A DNA stretch of 44,358 nt from an uncultured Chloroflexota bacterium (lineage in GTDB: Bacteria; Chloroflexota; Chloroflexia; Chloroflexales; Roseiflexaceae): NCBI GenBank assembly GCA_937859575.1, contig CALLZL010000290.1:1-44358 (forward strand). The letters run 5' to 3'. Positions 1,534-38,106 of the stretch are shown in pieces (the first letter of the stretch is position 1; the number at the start of each line of letters is the position of its first letter). A program made the translations under genes and the position numbers. The notes under the pieces were generated by a model. That model was not told where the DNA came from. It did no database searches and was given only the letters and a program-made list of their open reading frames with translations.

Positions 1534-3051
1534 TTAATCCGCCAGGAAGCTGATCAATCGCCCAAGCGCATCATACAACGCGGCCGGATCCGACGATGAG
1601 TTATTCCAGATCGGGCCGCCGTTGTTGGTGAAGACACGGCTTTCCCCCGGAGCCAGGCTGCCGCTGATCCCCGGGTGGCGCTGGCCGCCCGTGATGCTGC
1701 ATACCACCCAGCCATTCAGATCCACCGGTATCGCCCCTGCATTACGCAGCGTGACGGTTTCGGCGACTTTGTCGACCGCCATAATTTGCACTGGCCAGTT
1801 CGGCACAACCGTAACATCCGGCATCGTGCTGCAGCTGCTGAACGAAGGCGGCGGTGGTGTCGGTGTCGGTGTCGCACCAACCACAGCGGTTGGTGTTGCG
1901 GCAGGGCTCTGATTGTTCTGAGGTGAACGCAGCCATGGCAGAAAGAGTTGCGTATCAGCGGCAGACGCATCTTCCAGATTACACCCAAAGGCCGCCGCAG
2001 AGATCGGTGCCTTCAGGCGCTCGAAATCGGCAGCATAGGCAGCGGCAATCGCAGGATCGTGCACAATGATCGTGTTTTCATCGTTGCTTGCCACACCACT
2101 GGCGCTCCAGTTGGTCGAACCGGTGATCACCAGCGGATCGCTGGTTGTGGCAGCATCGACAATCGCGTATTTATTGTGCAGCGTACCGGTCCAATCTTCA
2201 ACCCGCAGCCGTATCCCGGCGGCACATAACCGGTCGCGTTCGCCGGCGGCGGCCCCGGCCGCCACCGCATTCAACAACACCTCCACCGCGACACCGCGCT
2301 GGTGGGCAGCGATCAGCGCATCGGCAAGCGGATCGCTGGTGAACGCAAACATGGCAACCTGGATCGACACATCAGCAGTCTGCAGCGCATTCGCAATACG
2401 CGCCTCGACACCATCCGATGGGCTGAAGGCGATCTGAACGCGCCGGCCGGCAACCATTGCTTCATCGGCCGTATTGTTAACCTTGGCAGTCGAGAAGGTA
2501 CCGCCGAACATCTCTTCGAATTCGCTAGTATAGATATCGGCCACCGTCGTCGAGGTGATCACCAGCACATTTTCACCATTCCGCGAGAAGGCAGTATTGG
2601 TAAAATTCGCGCTGCCGGTCCATGTTACGGTGCGATCAAAGATGGCGAACTTATTGTGCTGCAGGCTACTACGCGGATCATCGGTCACAATCGGGATGCC
2701 GACAGCGGCAAGCGCGGCGAAGAAAGGGCCGTTGCCGATACTGGCGACCTGCTGATTATCGCCGACAACCCGTACCGCGACACCGCGCTGATGGGCGGCG
2801 ATCAACGCATCACGGACACTCTCGCGGTTGAGCTCGTAGAGTGCGATATCGATACTACTACTGGCGGCATTGGTAAACGAAGTAAAGAGCGCATCCGCAG
2901 CGGTCGGCACCGTCGAGGTGCTGCCAGTGAGCGAGCCGAAAAAGTGGGCGCTCACTGCCTCGGCGGGGGTCGCCGGCGCTCGGCTCGGCCAGATCAACCA
3001 GATCCCGATGAACACAGCCACAGCACAGAAGAGGATGGCACGTTGTTGCAT
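1534..3051 (-). CDS. Secreted or membrane-anchored phospholipase D/nuclease-family protein with two HKD motifs and a C-terminal lamin-tail-like domain
   Basis: Two HxKxxxxD...GSxN motifs (HNKFAIFD..TGSANFT and HNKYAIVD..TGSTNWS). Hydrophobic N-terminal segment (AILFCAVAVFIGIWLIW). C-terminal VTLRNAGAIPVDLNGWVV...DPAALYDALGRLISF resembles an LTD. Start placed at the second ATG (3051) because a GGAG lies about 8 nt upstream; the ORF-track start at 3093 is also possible. Confidence 0.8.
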   Translation of the reverse strand: MQQRAILFCAVAVFIGIWLIWPSRAPATPAEAVSAHFFGSLTGSTSTVPTAADALFTSFTNAASSSIDIALYELNRESVRDALIAAHQRGVAVRVVGDNQQVASIGNGPFFAALAAVGIPIVTDDPRSSLQHNKFAIFDRTVTWTGSANFTNTAFSRNGENVLVITSTTVADIYTSEFEEMFGGTFSTAKVNNTADEAMVAGRRVQIAFSPSDGVEARIANALQTADVSIQVAMFAFTSDPLADALIAAHQRGVAVEVLLNAVAAGAAAGERDRLCAAGIRLRVEDWTGTLHNKYAIVDAATTSDPLVITGSTNWSASGVASNDENTIIVHDPAIAAAYAADFERLKAPISAAAFGCNLEDASAADTQLFLPWLRSPQNNQSPAATPTAVVGATPTPTPPPPSFSSCSTMPDVTVVPNWPVQIMAVDKVAETVTLRNAGAIPVDLNGWVVCSITGGQRHPGISGSLAPGESRVFTNNGGPIWNNSSSDPAALYDALGRLISFLAD

Positions 3052-3186
3052 GATATTGCTCCGATGTCTGAGTATACCATGGCTTGACCGCATATTGACA
3101 CCGGCAGAACTATTCTTGACACTGCCGGCAACGGCGAGTAGTATGGCGCGCGCAAGGAGCCGCTAGGCAGGAGGCGTACCGCACGA

Positions 3187-4335
3187 ATGCATATCGCAAT
3201 CGACTATACCGCTGCCGTATGGCAGGGGGCCGGTATCGGCCGTTATACCCGTGAGTTGGTGGCGGCGATCGTGGCAAAGGCACCGGATCTGCGTTACACA
3301 TTGTTCTATGCATCTGGTGGGCTCAGCAGCAACAGCCCTTTTGTTGCCGAGTTGCAGCGATTATGCGGCAGCTACCCAACGGTGAAGGCGGTTGGTATTC
3401 CATTGCCGCCCCGGCGGCTGGTTCAACTCTGGCACCGGTTGCGTCTGCCGCTCCCGCTCGAACTCTTTACCGGCCGTATCGATCTGCTGCACCAGCCGGA
3501 TTTCGCACTACCGCCGGCGCGGGCGCGATCCCTTGTGACGGTGCACGATCTTTCGTATATGGTGCATCCCGAATGTGCTGTTCCGGGGGTAGCACGATAC
3601 CTCAACAGTGCCGTGCCACGGAGTATTCGGCGTGCCGAACACATACTGTCCGATTCCCATGCCACCCGCAACGACATGCTGCGTCTGCTGGGCGTGCCCG
3701 GCGAGAAAGTCAGTGTCGTCTACCCTGGTGTATCGCCACGTTTCCGGCCGCTTGCGCCCGAAGCCACTGCTGATGCGCGGCGGCGGCTCGGCCTGCCCGA
3801 GCGCTTATTGCTCTTCGTCGGCACACTCGAACCGCGCAAGAATCTGCCGGGGCTGATCGAAGCCCTGGCAATGCTGCGCGATCGAGGCCGGTTGCCGGAG
3901 GAGATGCCGTTGATCATCGGCGGCAAGCGTGGCTGGATGTACCAGCCGATCTTCGATGCCATCAGCCGCCACCGCATGGAACCGCATGTGCGCCTGATCG
4001 ACTATATCGATGACGCTGACCTGCCGATCGTGTATAATCTGGCCTGGGCGTTCGTCTACCCTTCCATCTACGAGGGTTTCGGCCTGCCGGCACTTGAAGC
4101 GCTGGCCTGCGGCACACCAGTCGTCACCGCCGATAACTCCAGCCTGCCGGAGGTTGTCGGCGATATTGCCCTGCGGGTACCCGCCGATGATGTTGCCGCA
4201 CTTGCCGCCGCACTCGAGCAGGTGATTGGCGACGAAGCATTACGTGCGCGGCTACGGGCCGAGGGGCCGCAACGGGCGGCGCTGTTCACCTGGGAACAGG
4301 CGGCCGAACATGTTCTTGCCCATTACCGGCACTGA
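3187..4335 (+). CDS. GT4-family (GT-B) glycosyltransferase
   Basis: C-terminal GT-B signature region YPSIYEGFGLPALEALACGTPVVTADNSSLPEVVGD. AGGAGG lies about 12 nt upstream of the ATG. Confidence 0.85.
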   Translation: MHIAIDYTAAVWQGAGIGRYTRELVAAIVAKAPDLRYTLFYASGGLSSNSPFVAELQRLCGSYPTVKAVGIPLPPRRLVQLWHRLRLPLPLELFTGRIDLLHQPDFALPPARARSLVTVHDLSYMVHPECAVPGVARYLNSAVPRSIRRAEHILSDSHATRNDMLRLLGVPGEKVSVVYPGVSPRFRPLAPEATADARRRLGLPERLLLFVGTLEPRKNLPGLIEALAMLRDRGRLPEEMPLIIGGKRGWMYQPIFDAISRHRMEPHVRLIDYIDDADLPIVYNLAWAFVYPSIYEGFGLPALEALACGTPVVTADNSSLPEVVGDIALRVPADDVAALAAALEQVIGDEALRARLRAEGPQRAALFTWEQAAEHVLAHYRH

Positions 4336-12726: not shown

Positions 12727-12754
12727 AGTAAGTATAATGAAGCCAATATAGAAT

Positions 12755-12906
12755 TTGTTCTCTTGTTCTCTCGTTCTCTTGTTCTCTTGTTCTCTTGTTC
12801 TCTTGTTCTCTTGTTCTCTTGTTCTCTTGTTCTTTTGTTCTTTTGTTCTCTTGTTCTTTTGTTCTTTTGTTCTTTTGTTCTCTTGTTCTCTTGTTCTCTT
12901 GTTCTC
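12755..12906 (+). repeat. Tandem 8-bp repeat array, 19 units (TTGTTCTC x13, TTGTTCTT x5, TCGTTCTC x1)
   Basis: Counted unit by unit from the sequence. It sits between the GT4 stop (12726) and the rlmN ATG (12934). A TATAAT lies at 12733-12738 just upstream. Confidence 0.95.
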
Positions 12907-12933
12907 CCCACACCTACAGGCAGGCAGATTCTC

Positions 12934-14088
12934 ATGAACACCGACAGACCTGATCTCTACAACATGACCCTGGCCGAGCTTGAGGCACTGATGCAGCGGT
13001 GGGGCGAGCCGGCCTACCGGGCACGGCAGATCTACCGCCAGTTGTATGCCAATCTAGCAGGCGATCCAGCAGCCATGACCGACCTGCCGAAACGGCTGCG
13101 TGAGCGGCTAGCCGGCGAGGCGCGGATCGGTACGCTGACATTGACACGCGATCTGAGCGCCGACAGCGGGCTGACGCGTAAGGCGCTGTTTGCGCTTCCT
13201 GGCGGCGAAGTACTCGAAAGTGTCCTCATGATCTACCCCGACCGGGCGACGGTCTGTGTCTCGACGCAATCAGGCTGTGCGATGGGGTGTGTCTTCTGTG
13301 CCACCGGGCGGCTAGGGCTGTTGCGCAACCTGACGAGCGGCACAATCATCGAGCAGGTGATCTGGGCGGCGCGTGAAGTGCAGGCACTCGGCACCAATGA
13401 GCCGGTGGCGGATGTGCGTGATGATCGCTGGTGGGCAACCGAAGAGGAAGCGTCGCCAACCGGAAAGCTGCCAGGCCGATTGACGAATGTGGTCTTCATG
13501 GGCATGGGTGAGCCATTTGCCAACTATGATCGCTGGTGGCGGGCGGTCGAGCAGTTGCACGATCCGGCCGGGCTGAATATGGGAGCACGCAACCTGACGG
13601 TTTCGACGGTCGGGTTGGTACCGGGGATCGAGCGACTAGCCGGAGAAGCATTACCGATCAACCTGGCGATCTCGTTGCATGCCCCCGACGACGAACTGCG
13701 CAGCGAGATGATGCCGGTGAACCGGCGATACCCGATCGCCGTGCTGCTTGATGCGACGCGCCGTTATACCGAACAGAGCGGTCGGCGCGTATCGTTCGAG
13801 TATGTCTTGTTGCAGGGGAGGAACGACACCCCCGCGCATGCCGAAGCGCTGGCGACACTCTTACGCGGCATGCTCTGCCATGTCAACCTTATTCCATGGA
13901 ATCCGGTGCCTGGAATGCCGCTTGGTCGTTCGGAGCGGCGGCGGGTGCTGGAATTCCAAGCGATCCTGCGCGAGCGATCGGTGCCGTGTACGGTACGCGT
14001 CGAGCGTGGGGTCGCGATCGCAGCGGCATGCGGCCAATTAGCCGGTACCCCGCAACCTTTACCACTGGTCGAACGTTCTATAGAGTGA
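12934..14088 (+). CDS. rlmN: 23S rRNA/tRNA (adenine-C2)-methyltransferase RlmN (radical SAM)
   Basis: [38 protein letters not shown] is the canonical RlmN N-terminus. Radical-SAM [11 protein letters not shown]. Later conserved Cys in AACGQL. Confidence 0.93.
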
Positions 14089-34625: not shown

Positions 34626-35720
34626 ATGATCTCGTTTACTCCTACCGAAGAGCAGCAGCTTATCAGTGATACGGTGCGGCGTTATGCCGCCGAGCGGCTG
34701 CGCCCGGCCGCCCACGATGCCGACGAAACGCGCAGTACACCGCTGGAGGTGATTGCACGCTGCTGGGATCTTGGCCTGTTGCCGAGCGCCATCCCCGAAG
34801 TTGATGGCGGTTTTGGCGATGCACATGCGACGATAAGCGGGGTGCTGGCGGCCGAGGAACTGGCCTATGGTGATCTGCCGATCAGCCTGTATCTGCTGAC
34901 ACCCGGCCTGTTTGGGTTGCCGATTGCCCATGCCGGCACGGCTGAGCAGAAAGAGCGCTGGTTGCCGCATCTGCTCGGTGATACCTTTGCGCCGTATACA
35001 GCGGCATGTATTGAGCCGATCTGGAACTTCGATCCGACCGCCATGCAGACGACGGCAACTCGTGATGGGGATTCGTACCTGCTGAGCGGCCAGAAGGCGT
35101 ATGTACCACTGGCTGCCGATGCGGCGGCCATGCTGATCTATGCCCGCGAAGGGCAGGCAACCCAGATCTTTATTGTTGAGCGCGGCAGTGAAGGGCTTGA
35201 GATCCTCGATCGCGAGCAGCACATGGGGTTGCGTGCTCTGCCGACTTACGGCGTGCGGCTGGAGGATGTGCGCGAGGCGGCGGCCGCCCGACTCGGCGGT
35301 GAGCAGGGGATCGACAGCCGGCGATTACTGGATCGCTCGCGGGTGGCGCTCGGGGCACTCGCGGTTGGCGTTGCACGCGCCGCCTATGAGTATGCCCGTG
35401 AGTATGCATTGCAGCGTGAAGCGTTTGGTAAGCCGATTGCGCAAAACCAGGCACTTGCCTTCATGCTTGCCGAAATGGCGATCGAGATCGATGCCGCACG
35501 CCTGATGACCTGGGAGGCAGCCTGGCAGCTTGATCAGCAGCTTGATGCAACCCGCCAGGCTGTGCTGGCCCGCCAGTATGCCGACGAAGCCGTGTTGATG
35601 GTGGCCGACCGCGCCGTGCAGATCCTGGGTGGTCATGGCTACATCCGCGAGCATCCAGTTGAACGCTGGTTGCGTGAAGCCCGTGGGTTTACGACGATCC
35701 TCGGCATGGCAATGGTGTAA
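34626..35720 (+). CDS. Acyl-CoA dehydrogenase family protein lacking the usual C-terminal catalytic Glu
   Basis: ACAD fold throughout (FTPTEEQQLISDTVRRYA..., REAFGKPIAQNQALAFMLAEM). The C-terminus reads WLREARGFTTILG where the neighbour has DARINDIYEGTGQI. AGGAGGAGG RBS. Confidence 0.85.
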   Translation: MISFTPTEEQQLISDTVRRYAAERLRPAAHDADETRSTPLEVIARCWDLGLLPSAIPEVDGGFGDAHATISGVLAAEELAYGDLPISLYLLTPGLFGLPIAHAGTAEQKERWLPHLLGDTFAPYTAACIEPIWNFDPTAMQTTATRDGDSYLLSGQKAYVPLAADAAAMLIYAREGQATQIFIVERGSEGLEILDREQHMGLRALPTYGVRLEDVREAAAARLGGEQGIDSRRLLDRSRVALGALAVGVARAAYEYAREYALQREAFGKPIAQNQALAFMLAEMAIEIDAARLMTWEAAWQLDQQLDATRQAVLARQYADEAVLMVADRAVQILGGHGYIREHPVERWLREARGFTTILGMAMV

Positions 35721-35734
35721 GAAGGAGCAGTAGC

Positions 35735-36991
35735 ATGATCGATTTCGATCTTCCCACGCCGGTCAAACGCCAGGTGCAGTTTATCGGAATGCTTGGCGAG
35801 CAGGTCATGCGGCCGGTGGCACGCTATTACGATGAGCACGAAGGCGAACGGCCCTGGGAATATATCAACCTGATCTGGCAGACAGTGCGTGATCAGGGTG
35901 GGCGTAACTTTTCGGCCGATACTACCCCGAAGCTCGATAAAGAAGGCAAGCCGCGGCCACGGATCGGCTACCTGATGCTGGCGCATATGGTCGAGGCGCT
36001 TTCGTGGGGCGATGCCGGCTTGTACCTCTCGACACCGGGATCGGGCCTGGGGGGTGCGGCGGTCGATGCAACTGGTACACCCGCACAGAAGGAGCGTTTT
36101 CTGAAGCGCTTTGCCGAAGGTGAACCGAAGTGGTCGGCCATGGCGATGACCGAGCCGCATGCCGGATCGGATACGGCTGCGATCCGTACGACCGCTCGAC
36201 TTTCGGATGATGGCAGTGCCTGGATTCTCAATGGCGAGAAGATCTTTGTGACGAGTGGTGCCATGGCCGCCCGTGACTCGCAGGGTTTTGTGGTGATCTG
36301 GGCGACGCTCGATGCGAAAGCAGGTCGGGCGGCAATCAAGCCGTTTGTTGTCGAAGCCGGCACGCCGGGGATGACGGTTGCCAAGCTCGAACACAAGCAT
36401 GGGATTCGTGCATCCGACACTGCTTCGATTGTGCTGCAGGATTGCCGCATCCCGCGCGACAATCTGCTCGGGAGCGAAGAGATCGCCGATGTGCGGGCGG
36501 CAGGCAACAAAGGGTTTGCCGGTGCCATGCGCACCTTTGATGCGACCCGGCCGCTGGTGGCGGCATCGGCGCTTGGTATCACCCGCGCAGCGCTCGATTT
36601 CACGGTTCAGTATCTGAAGGAACGTGGTGTGACGATCCATTACGGCCTGCCGCTGCATCAGCAGAGTGCGGTTGAACGTGATCTGATGCAGATGGAAGCT
36701 CAGCACCGCGCCGCCTGGTTGCTGGTATTGCGGGCGGTGACGAAAATGGATGCCGGTGAGGATAATGCCCTCGAAGCTTCGATGTCGAAGGTGAAGGCCG
36801 GCCAGGTTGCGAACTTCGTCGCACAAAAGGCTGTCGAGCTTCTCGGCCCCGAAGGGTATTCGTGCACGCTGCTGGTTGAGAAGTGGATGCGCGATGCGCG
36901 GATTAATGATATCTACGAGGGAACCGGCCAGATCAACCGGTTGATTGTGGCGCGCCGCTTGCTGGGGTATAGTAGCCGTGAGTTGCGCTAG
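35735..36991 (+). CDS. Acyl-CoA dehydrogenase
   Basis: MTEPHAGSD, GEKIFVTSG, DARINDIYEGTGQINRL (catalytic Glu context). Confidence 0.9.
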   Translation: MIDFDLPTPVKRQVQFIGMLGEQVMRPVARYYDEHEGERPWEYINLIWQTVRDQGGRNFSADTTPKLDKEGKPRPRIGYLMLAHMVEALSWGDAGLYLSTPGSGLGGAAVDATGTPAQKERFLKRFAEGEPKWSAMAMTEPHAGSDTAAIRTTARLSDDGSAWILNGEKIFVTSGAMAARDSQGFVVIWATLDAKAGRAAIKPFVVEAGTPGMTVAKLEHKHGIRASDTASIVLQDCRIPRDNLLGSEEIADVRAAGNKGFAGAMRTFDATRPLVAASALGITRAALDFTVQYLKERGVTIHYGLPLHQQSAVERDLMQMEAQHRAAWLLVLRAVTKMDAGEDNALEASMSKVKAGQVANFVAQKAVELLGPEGYSCTLLVEKWMRDARINDIYEGTGQINRLIVARRLLGYSSRELR

Positions 36992-37004
36992 GTGGAGGAG
37001 TAGG

Positions 37005-37188
37005 GGAGCAGGGGAGCAAAGGAACAAAGGAACAAAGGAACAAAGGAACAGAGGAACAAAGGAGCAGGGGAGCAAAGGAACAGAGGAACAAAGGAACAGA
37101 GGAACAAAGGAGCAGAGGGACAGAGGAGCAGGGGAACAAAGGAGCAGAGGGACAGAGGAGCAGGGGAGCAAAGGAGCAAAGGAACAGA
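37005..37188 (+). repeat. Tandem 8-bp purine-rich repeat array, 23 units (GGAACAAA/GGAACAGA/GGAGCAGG/GGAGCAAA/GGAGCAGA/GGGACAGA)
   Basis: Counted unit by unit: 11 GGAA-, 10 GGAG-, 2 GGGA-type units. Contains a 32-bp higher-order duplicate (37109-37140 vs 37141-37172, 1 mismatch). The reverse complement is related to the array at 12755-12906. Confidence 0.95.
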
Positions 37189-37224
37189 GGAACCTGTTCT
37201 TTGTTTTCCGGAAGGGCTATAATA

Positions 37225-38106
37225 ATGCTCACACCTCTCACGATTACCGCACATGCCCGCCTGGCGCCGGAGCATGTTGAGGCAGTTGTTGCGCTGGCGG
37301 GCGAGATTCGCGCATCCGGGATCGATCCGCGTCTGAATGAAGCATGGATCGCTACTCGTGATGGTACACGCGAGGCCGACTGGTTGGCATGGGAAGGAGA
37401 GCGCCTGGTTGGGGTGGCTGCAACTGAGCGGTTTGGCACAACGGCCGAGGCGACGATCGGGCTGCTGCCGGATGCTCCGGCCACGACGGCGGCGGCGCTC
37501 TATGGCGCATTGTGCCGGGCATTACCGCAACAGGGCATTGGGCGGCTTTTACTGCTGCATGATCGGAGGGCGACGACGCTACGGGCGATGGCCGAAGCCA
37601 ATCAACTGACCTTTGATCATGCCGAGTGTGTGATGTGTCGCCCTGGCGATCTTGGTGTGCCGGTGGTGCTGCACGGTTCGCTGGCGATCGTCGAGGCAGT
37701 GGGGGATCTTCTGCCGGCAGCGGCCCATGTGCTGGCCGAGGGTTGGGGCGGTGCCGTGGCTGAGATTCTGGCGCGTATGCAGCAGGATTACGAGCGCGGA
37801 ACGATCCGTTACTTTCTGGCACTGCTTGGCGATGAACCAGTGGCAACGCTCAATATCCAGATGCTTGCAGGGCACCCATGGCTGTATGGCCTGGTTGTAC
37901 GTGAAGCGTACCGTGGGCGTGGCTATGGCCGGCAGATAGTCGCCGCCGCGCTGGCCGAAGTAGCCAGCCAGGAACACGGCGATGTGTTTCTGGAGGTTGA
38001 GCCGGAGAACACGCCTGCTGTGAACCTATACCGTTCGTTGGGCTTCGCAGTGGTGCGAACCTTTGACTACTGGGCGAAGGAGCTGCATGATGGCACATAT
38101 TCGTAA
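37225..38106 (+). CDS. Two-domain GNAT N-acetyltransferase
   Basis: C-terminal half has the canonical LYGLVVREAYRGRGYGRQIVAAAL ...LEVEPENTPAVNLYRSLGF. The N-terminal half is a degenerate GNAT. Stop overlaps the start of the fadN-like gene. Confidence 0.75.
   Translation: MLTPLTITAHARLAPEHVEAVVALAGEIRASGIDPRLNEAWIATRDGTREADWLAWEGERLVGVAATERFGTTAEATIGLLPDAPATTAAALYGALCRALPQQGIGRLLLLHDRRATTLRAMAEANQLTFDHAECVMCRPGDLGVPVVLHGSLAIVEAVGDLLPAAAHVLAEGWGGAVAEILARMQQDYERGTIRYFLALLGDEPVATLNIQMLAGHPWLYGLVVREAYRGRGYGRQIVAAALAEVASQEHGDVFLEVEPENTPAVNLYRSLGFAVVRTFDYWAKELHDGTYS

Follow-up and report, generated by a model that had tools for sequence, protein, structure and literature searches.

The stretch of DNA analyzed here (the window) comprises 44,358 nucleotides of contig C290 of a Roseiflexaceae genome (G000), a fragmented short-read metagenome-assembled genome (MAG) of 735 contigs and 5.3 Mb with 60.4% GC and an estimated completeness of 93.6%. 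On the plus strand of the window, the gene of a second acyl-CoA dehydrogenase (ACAD; 35735 to 36991, assigned from the ORF listing and matches to NCBIfam models of the acyl-CoA dehydrogenase family) is followed by a tandem array of purine-rich octamers (37005 to 37188, plus strand) and by a gene for a GNAT acetyltransferase (37225 to 38106, plus strand; GNAT-family matches below curated cut-offs). The ACAD stop codon TAG occupies positions 36989 to 36991 and is separated from the array by 13 nt. Its start 14 nt past the stop and its end 37 nt ahead of the GNAT ATG (37225 to 37227) are as stated in an earlier sequence-only reading of the locus. A TATAAT sequence lies 1 nt 5′ of this ATG.

Cutting the array unit by unit yielded the 23 in-phase octamers that the sequence-only reading had counted: GGAACAAA seven times, GGAGCAGG, GGAGCAAA, and GGAACAGA four times each, and GGAGCAGA and GGGACAGA twice each. 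The units conform to GGARCARR; we refer to such purine-strand arrays as R type and to their pyrimidine-strand counterparts as Y type. There is no T in the array and one C per unit (23 in total), and 87.5% of the bases are purines. The reported 23 GGA and 10 GGAG motifs were recovered, along with 16 AGGA, at a motif spacing of 8 nt. Tandem Repeats Finder called the stretch from 37005 to 37193 as a period-8 array of 23.6 copies (score 189) and also as a period-16 array (score 239). A 32-bp higher-order duplication claimed within the array does exist, but its halves are identical at 31 of 32 positions and not throughout. The copy number of 23 is possibly unreliable, since the MAG was assembled from short reads and 24 of 43 such arrays in this genome end a contig. 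The pattern (GAACANNN)4GAACA occurs 149 times in G000 and not once in 38 of the 40 relatives searched, and the array is far beyond chance. When metagenome contigs were scanned for the exact junction and for the GNAT protein, neither another allele of the window junction nor a length variant was found.

The array lies in a cluster of co-directional genes, which makes its co-transcription with the ACAD gene likely; read-through would be almost certain given that 13 nt are too short for a terminator and that none is predicted nearby. Consensus scans called no sigma-70 promoter and no intrinsic terminator at either of the two octamer arrays of the window, and Rfam models had no match in the window. 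The RNA of the array is predicted to be nearly structureless. The minimum free energy (MFE) of the 236-nt spacer is −23.4 kcal/mol, and nearly all of it comes from a distal stem, the only substantial one in the fold, in which the final array units (CAAAGGAACAG) pair across an AGGAAC loop with CTGTTCTTTG, followed by TTTTCC. This is the hairpin GAACAG-aggaac-CTGTTC that had been noticed by eye; it spans positions 37176 to 37209 (plus strand) and includes a vestigial Y arm of only about two units. Approximately two units of the array can therefore pair, and ~170 nt stay unpaired. Together with TTTTCC, the distal stem resembles a weak terminator but fails the consensus terminator scan, the stem running into the T-run.

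The ACAD protein is 78 to 81% identical in amino acid sequence to its orthologs in Roseiflexus, Kouleothrix, and Ca. Ribeiella MAGs, which assigns the source organism to the Roseiflexaceae. In the Roseiflexus and other Roseiflexaceae loci examined (L007, L009, L010, and L014), the GNAT gene is missing from the ACAD-fadN junction and fadN follows ACAD directly, which places the array at the edge of a lineage-specific gene insertion. A window-type array is not conserved at the ACAD junction of the relatives: Roseiflexus has an ordinary GC-rich terminator-like hairpin there, and the hairpins of other relatives have tandem repeats of unrelated units as arms, namely, (GGGAGAT)n...(CCCCCAA)n, (GGGGCTT)3...(CCCCTAA)n, and (TTTTGAA)3...(TTCAAAA)4. 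We also considered an in situ origin of the array from a Roseiflexus-type terminator. The Roseiflexus junction hairpins read GAAGCAGGGGG...CCCCGCTTCTCTGTTTC, and no hairpin of the form GARCAGGGG-N(4-30)-CCCCTGYTC was found in G000 or in four relatives; we therefore rejected this origin.

Arrays of this kind contain no stop codon in any frame of either strand and create long spurious ORFs and false N-terminal extensions. The ORFs at 35639 to 37171 (minus strand), 36945 to 37280 (plus strand), and 12763 to 14088 (plus strand) are caused in this way; examples are a 510–amino acid antisense ORF over the ACAD gene and an rlmN ORF that starts inside an array.

The latter array is the sister Y-type array of the window (12755 to 12906, plus strand), which unit counts resolve into (TTGTTCTC)13, (TTGTTCTT)5, and (TCGTTCTC)1 and which Tandem Repeats Finder called with a period of 8, 19.0 copies, and 95% matches. 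It begins 29 nt past the stop codon of a glycosyltransferase gene and ends 27 nt before the rlmN ATG (12934). Its purine-strand unit GAACAAGA is restricted to Y-type arrays throughout G000 (27 versus 0). In most of 22 family genomes, a TATAAT box lies 7 to 15 nt before the rlmN start codon, a spacing that suggests a leaderless or near-leaderless mRNA in these relatives. G000 has kept the box (12733 to 12738, plus strand, identified by comparison of the rlmN upstream regions of the 22 genomes), with the 152-bp (TTGTTCTC)19 array lying between it and the ATG. The two-hexamer promoter scan did not call this box, and there is no obvious Shine-Dalgarno sequence before the G000 rlmN ATG.

The sequence-only reading had treated the two arrays as an inverted pair bracketing the intervening DNA. 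They are indeed related and oppositely oriented; nothing singles them out as a bracketing pair, as they are 2 of ~43 arrays of one dispersed family. These were collected by a core-and-period scan for at least five units with GAACA-type or TGTTC-type cores; together, they cover 4.7 kb of G000. As 24 of the 43 touch a contig end, the arrays evidently break the assembly. At eight loci, an R array is followed by a Y array within ~20 nt, one of them enclosing a gene, and in all eight adjacent pairs, the order is R then Y; the reverse was never seen. Since this order is unchanged by reverse complementation, it reflects a real handedness of the element. The plus-strand order of the two window arrays, Y then R, is opposite to it. 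One R-loop-Y locus was assembled twice, in opposite orientation, on contigs C137 and C249: their loops, AAATCGTCGTTATTC and GAATAACGACGATTT, are mutually reverse-complementary, so the contigs overlap and were left unjoined by the assembler.

To relate the arrays to genes, we used gene calls from our own codon log-odds caller and considered those arrays of G000 that lie no more than 40 nt from either end of a gene. Those that face a stop codon were purine-rich on the sense strand of the gene (15 versus 1), and those that face a start codon were pyrimidine-rich (11 versus 2; Fisher P = 2 × 10−5 for the rule as a whole, with copies that are not strictly independent). The layout of the family is thus stop - R ... 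Y - start. In the window, each half is seen once: 23 R units followed by 2 Y units lie between the ACAD stop and GNAT, and no R unit but 19 Y units lie between the glycosyltransferase stop and rlmN. Family arrays occur in both orientations relative to neighboring genes, and about half of them present the pyrimidine strand to the transcript of the neighboring gene.

The plus-strand RNAs of the two window arrays had been proposed to be largely complementary if G-U pairs are allowed. This was confirmed by cofolding (−180 kcal/mol versus −97 kcal/mol for the antisense pair). The complementarity follows from the two arrays being the two arm types of one family and applies family-wide.

Both arm types flank a protein-coding gene at one place in the genome. 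G000 has a single match to PF05635 (S23p; E = 1.3 × 10−26), at positions 97 to 414 of contig C479. The gene also matches TIGR02436, “four helix bundle protein,” with 92.5 bits, where the cut-off is 24, as well as the structures 2RLD and 2GSC in the Protein Data Bank. It is flanked by (GGAACAGA)7 (C479:2-54, cut by the contig start) and by (TTGTTCTY)10 (C479:573-649), and the leuA start lies 23 nt past the second array. The arm units are identical to the unit types of the two window arrays: GGAACAGA is both the unit of the 5′ arm and one of the main units of the window array, in each case after a co-oriented upstream gene, and GAACAAGA of the sister array is the unit of the 3′ arm. The ORF region has a GC content of 46% compared to 60% for the genome. 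The full cassette, arms flanking a PF05635 ORF, is present once in G000, and about 40 arrays built from its units but enclosing no gene are dispersed over the gene gaps. There is no ORF between the window array and its two-unit partner, and we class this copy by its architecture as a putative gene-less derivative and not as a cassette. Simple loss of the S23p ORF by deletion was considered as the source of the gene-less pairs and rejected: no sequence is common to their loops and the inner borders of the cassette. Descent from the cassette accordingly rests on unit identity and architecture and not on a traceable deletion. A dependence of the arrays on a resident cognate S23p gene fits G000, with its one gene and one array family, and fails in G013, which has many GACAAGRT arrays and no S23p gene of the matching clade.

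Across the family, a search of 40 relatives found (GAACANNN)n arrays in only 2. In other genera, arrays number in the hundreds and are built of GACAAGRT, GACAAGGA, GACAAGGC, and similar units. In the genomes G007 and G013, we sampled 6-kb regions around 39 octamer arrays with Tandem Repeats Finder. At 16 of the 39 arrays, the TGA stop of the co-oriented upstream gene lies in or at the first array units. The samples also contain many heptamer arrays, which are often joined in series, as in (GGAGACAA)21 then (CCCAAGC)30 and (AGACACG)32 then (TTGTCTCC)39, or form small inverted pairs such as (GTCAGTT)n...(CAACTGA)n. In G013, the GACAAGRT array forms the end nearest the gene in a composite element of ~200 bp that recurs in both orientations at ~10 of the 19 sampled loci (L122 to L133, around positions 2800 to 3400 of each), in the order octamers, GAAGGGGTGA, (GAGGATR)n, the palindrome GGGCGTATTGCATACGCCC, (GAACCGA)n-like repeats, and GGGCAGGCCCTCCGTGGCCGCC.

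PF05635 genes were detected in 20 of the 26 family genomes searched. We surveyed 43 S23p loci from 18 genomes, scoring arms as complementary when the downstream unit was at least 70% identical to the reverse complement of the upstream unit. Complementary tandem arms were found at 32 of the 43 loci (25 heptamer and 7 octamer). The upstream arm was richer in G than in C and the downstream arm richer in C than in G in 26 cases versus 1 (binomial P = 4 × 10−7). In a maximum-likelihood tree of the 43 proteins, sequences grouped by arm unit and by locus. The copies of G000, G005, G007, G009, and G013 located between ilvC and leuA form one clade (support 99/97) that spans five genera and shares a PFPF..EDY C-terminal tail and arms with a GAAC core. 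A second clade, from three genera, has TGACAAGA-type arms; CTTGGGG arms occur in two genera, and GTTGAAC arms in both genomes of genus g4, where one cassette (L191) has a (GTTGAAC)30 arm. Since the tree tracks both arm unit and locus, the cassettes are old, vertically inherited residents. The arm sequences are kept where ordinary spacers can no longer be aligned, which argues for constraint on the arms of full cassettes.

In two genera (L136, G007:C7:17926-21243, at ~1440 to 1900, and L185 of G023), an S23p cassette lies inside a large DNA-methyltransferase-like ORF. The arms are of the (AGGGATC)/(CCTGAAC) type, and the downstream part of the host ORF reads ...YGVDKNPLAVEMAKLSLWL. The host frame is open for 1105 codons through the cassette, so this copy appears to be read through in frame.

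Taken together, these observations lead us to consider that the window array is probably a gene-less, one-sided copy, the 5′ arm, of a hairpin element common in Roseiflexaceae, which is tolerated, enlarged by slippage, and co-transcribed with its neighbors. The full element consists of a G-rich 7- or 8-nt tandem array, a small S23p/four-helix-bundle gene (PF05635), and a complementary C-rich array; it is set between co-directional genes, and its first arm begins directly at the stop codon of the upstream gene or shortly past it. In G000, its one full copy is that upstream of leuA, with (GGAACAGA)n and (TTGTTCTY)n arms. On this reading, the window copy has retained 23 units from the 5′ arm but no more than ~2 from the 3′ arm. 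It would be transcribed with the ACAD-GNAT-fadN cluster, as nothing is predicted to stop RNA polymerase in the 13 nt past the stop, and most of it would be single-stranded purine-rich RNA. Only the distal 10 to 16 bp would fold, into a hairpin that might act as a weak pause, processing, or 3′ end–protecting structure. The length of the array most likely arose by replication slippage. Since the window copy lacks nearly all of its partner arm, a slippage-expanded, tolerated remnant is favored, and the copy is more probably near-neutral repeat DNA than a regulator. By analogy with the S23p-bearing intervening sequences of 23S ribosomal RNA, the paired copies of the family may serve as RNA processing or 3′-end structures.

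The window copy could instead be a working cis-acting RNA element whose R/Y double-stranded RNA serves as an RNase III substrate or as a barrier to 3′ exonucleases. We regard this as unlikely, and the same reservation applies to its presumed effect, in which the ACAD and GNAT-fadN parts of the polycistronic RNA would be split or stabilized in the manner of excised 23S ribosomal RNA (rRNA) intervening sequences (IVSs). The full cassette is built like an IVS excised by RNase III, with complementary borders around an S23p ORF (PMC4990558); the strict orientation of the family relative to transcription suggests a constraint tied to transcription direction; arm units are conserved across genera within S23p clades; and in Xanthomonas, such repeats coincide with transcript starts or stops more often than control repeats do (PMC4692102). 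Against these points, only about two units of the window copy can pair, with ~170 nt left unpaired, and the array is not conserved at the junction in relatives. Sense-strand RNA pairing should also leave an excess of G-U pairs. We looked for this signature in 38 cassettes and found no asymmetry (14 versus 23, P = 0.87), and G-U pairs in the arms were not in excess over A-C. The lone G000 cassette does favor sense folding (−58.5 versus −38.6 kcal/mol), and the gene-less pairs go both ways. Last, RNase III (PF14622 and PF00636) had no match in the G000 assembly and one copy in each of four better-assembled relatives; its absence is probably an assembly gap in the incomplete MAG.

More speculatively, arm-bearing S23p/Avd-like genes may constitute an undescribed class of elements in which each S23p clade would recognize a 7- or 8-nt unit of its own, as RNA or single-stranded DNA, and the gene-less arrays at gene 3′ ends, the window array among them, would be its in-trans sites or its products. 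This is a long shot, on which the protein would conceivably affect the fate of RNA in trans or, like Avd with reverse transcriptase, take part in templated synthesis or copying of repeats. If true, the matching of S23p to arms would explain the STRRs of cyanobacteria, the heptamers of Xanthomonas, and the octamers of Chloroflexota by a single cause.

An independently arisen plain microsatellite, based on a slippage-prone GAACA octamer with a coincidental likeness to the cassette arms, is improbable and already disfavored. Long, heptamer-dominated simple sequence repeats are found widely among bacteria and have been attributed to slippage of the polymerase (Mrazek 2007, as summarized in PMC4679880), and the near-perfect 32-bp internal duplication is a slippage signature. 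Coincidence, however, leaves unexplained the distinct R and Y unit sets that match the two cassette arms, the R-then-Y order in eight of eight pairs together with the stop/start orientation rule, and the possession by each S23p clade of its own arm unit across genera.

The sequence-only reading had proposed a CsrA/RsmA-type sponge or an anti–Shine-Dalgarno decoy, in which the 23 GGA motifs would titrate a GGA-binding regulator or 30S subunits. The 23 GGA, 10 GGAG, and 16 AGGA at 8-nt spacing in a probably unstructured RNA are what made this attractive, and we now consider it very improbable. csrA (PF02599) had no match in the 93.6%-complete G000, while Escherichia coli, Bacillus subtilis, and Thermotoga controls were matched, so the CsrA part of the proposal fails; GGAGG is absent from the array; and the family lies in both orientations relative to neighboring genes. 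Related arrays and sister cassettes in the same positions in relatives use units without GGA (TTTTGAG, GTAGTCA, ACGTTGGC, and others), and the GGA content of the window array is for this reason best read as an accident of the unit of this lineage. Sponge RNAs are typically separate small RNAs, each transcribed from a promoter and ended by a terminator of its own, that display several GGA motifs in the loops of hairpins. The window array has its 23 GGA in a predicted unstructured RNA for which no promoter, terminator, or Rfam family was found. RecA needs roughly 20 to 25 bp of identity. A switch in which the related, oppositely oriented arrays at 12.8 and 37.0 kb invert the 24-kb segment between them, also proposed earlier, is hardly credible, since the longest exact match of one array to the reverse complement of the other is 7 nt (best ungapped window, 33/40), far below that requirement, recombination among the ~40 other arrays, present in both orientations, would scramble the chromosome, and the inversion would set co-directional operons against their neighbors.

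The reading of the window array as a one-sided remnant of an S23p hairpin element invites comparison with several known systems. PF05635 is the family of proteins encoded in 23S rRNA IVSs and of the retroelement protein Avd. S23p-bearing IVSs of Coxiella, Leptospira, and Xanthomonas are excised by RNase III through their complementary borders (Warrier et al. 2016, PMC4990558). The full G000 cassette resembles them in its long-stem complementary borders around a PF05635/TIGR02436 ORF, atypical GC content, and insertion in a transcribed region. It differs in lying between protein-coding genes (in some relatives, inside them) and not in rRNA, and in having borders made of tandem 7- or 8-mer arrays. 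The window copy, likewise between protein-coding genes, departs further in having no ORF and almost no 3′ arm.

Proteobacterial REP/BIME/REPIN sequences are, like the G000 arrays, dispersed gene-less palindromic elements in gene gaps with a rare protein-coding “master” copy, and termination and mRNA stabilization are among the roles proposed for them (PMC3733652 and PMC3116915). REPs are unique-sequence palindromes of 20 to 40 bp associated with a RAYT transposase, whereas the family arms are tandem arrays of variable length, and S23p is a four-helix bundle with no known transposition activity. The TAACTGA repeats of marine Beggiatoaceae are tandem repeats of 7 nt that abound in intergenic DNA and are strongly biased in orientation with respect to neighboring genes (MacGregor 2015, PMC4679880). 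Some of them overlap stop codons and supply stops in three frames, as do the TGACAAGR arrays of G007 and G013. Unlike the family arrays, they mostly face starts, come in sets of two to six copies, and have not been reported to form hairpin arms or to be linked to a gene.

The closest parallel is with short tandemly repeated repetitive (STRR)/heptamer sequences. Short stop-adjacent heptamer arrays have reportedly been known in cyanobacteria for more than 30 years, since work by Mazel in 1990. The GGGAATC and GGGGAYT heptamers of Xanthomonas and Nostoc have their G-rich strand on the sense strand where they overlap a stop codon or lie no more than 50 bp from one and on the antisense strand just upstream of ORFs, occur also as inverted pairs, are enriched between co-oriented genes, and are mostly transcribed; transcript stability or translational coupling has been proposed as their role (Rehm et al. 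2015, PMC4692102). STRR/heptamer repeats and G000 arrays are alike in being dispersed intergenic tandem arrays with a unit that is not a multiple of 3 and with hairpin-capable inverted pairs. The window array has the head-to-tail, noncoding 5- to 11-nt unit dispersed in many copies, and the positional features of the heptamers as well: G-rich sense strand near a stop codon, co-oriented ORFs, and inverted partners, the same rule as in PMC4692102. It is not an STRR in the strict sense, with a unit of 8 instead of 7 nt and a host in Roseiflexaceae instead of cyanobacteria, although heptamer relatives exist in sister genomes. Unlike the G-rich heptamers, the window-type unit GGAACARA has no G-runs, so no G-quadruplex is possible, and arrays reach 30 units in G000 compared to a preference for 4 in Xanthomonas. 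Neither PMC4692102 nor PMC4679880 mentions S23p, four-helix-bundle, or IVS genes, and our incomplete search of the literature returned neither a description of such arrays in Chloroflexota nor a paper that connects PF05635 with tandem-repeat arms.

For annotators, arrays that end 24 contigs of G000 and yield long false ORFs are best masked. The system also poses questions that can be put to experiment: whether S23p binds the arms (units such as (GGAACAGA)6 and (UUGUUCUC)6), whether RNase III cuts the stems, and whether the arrays set transcript ends. Stop-adjacent heptamer and octamer arrays have been described in Xanthomonas since 2015. In the Roseiflexaceae, they can be linked to a defined parent element: an S23p gene between complementary arrays, which stays at the same loci from genus to genus and whose arm units track the S23p phylogeny. 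What was a vague “microsatellite” thereby becomes a testable system.
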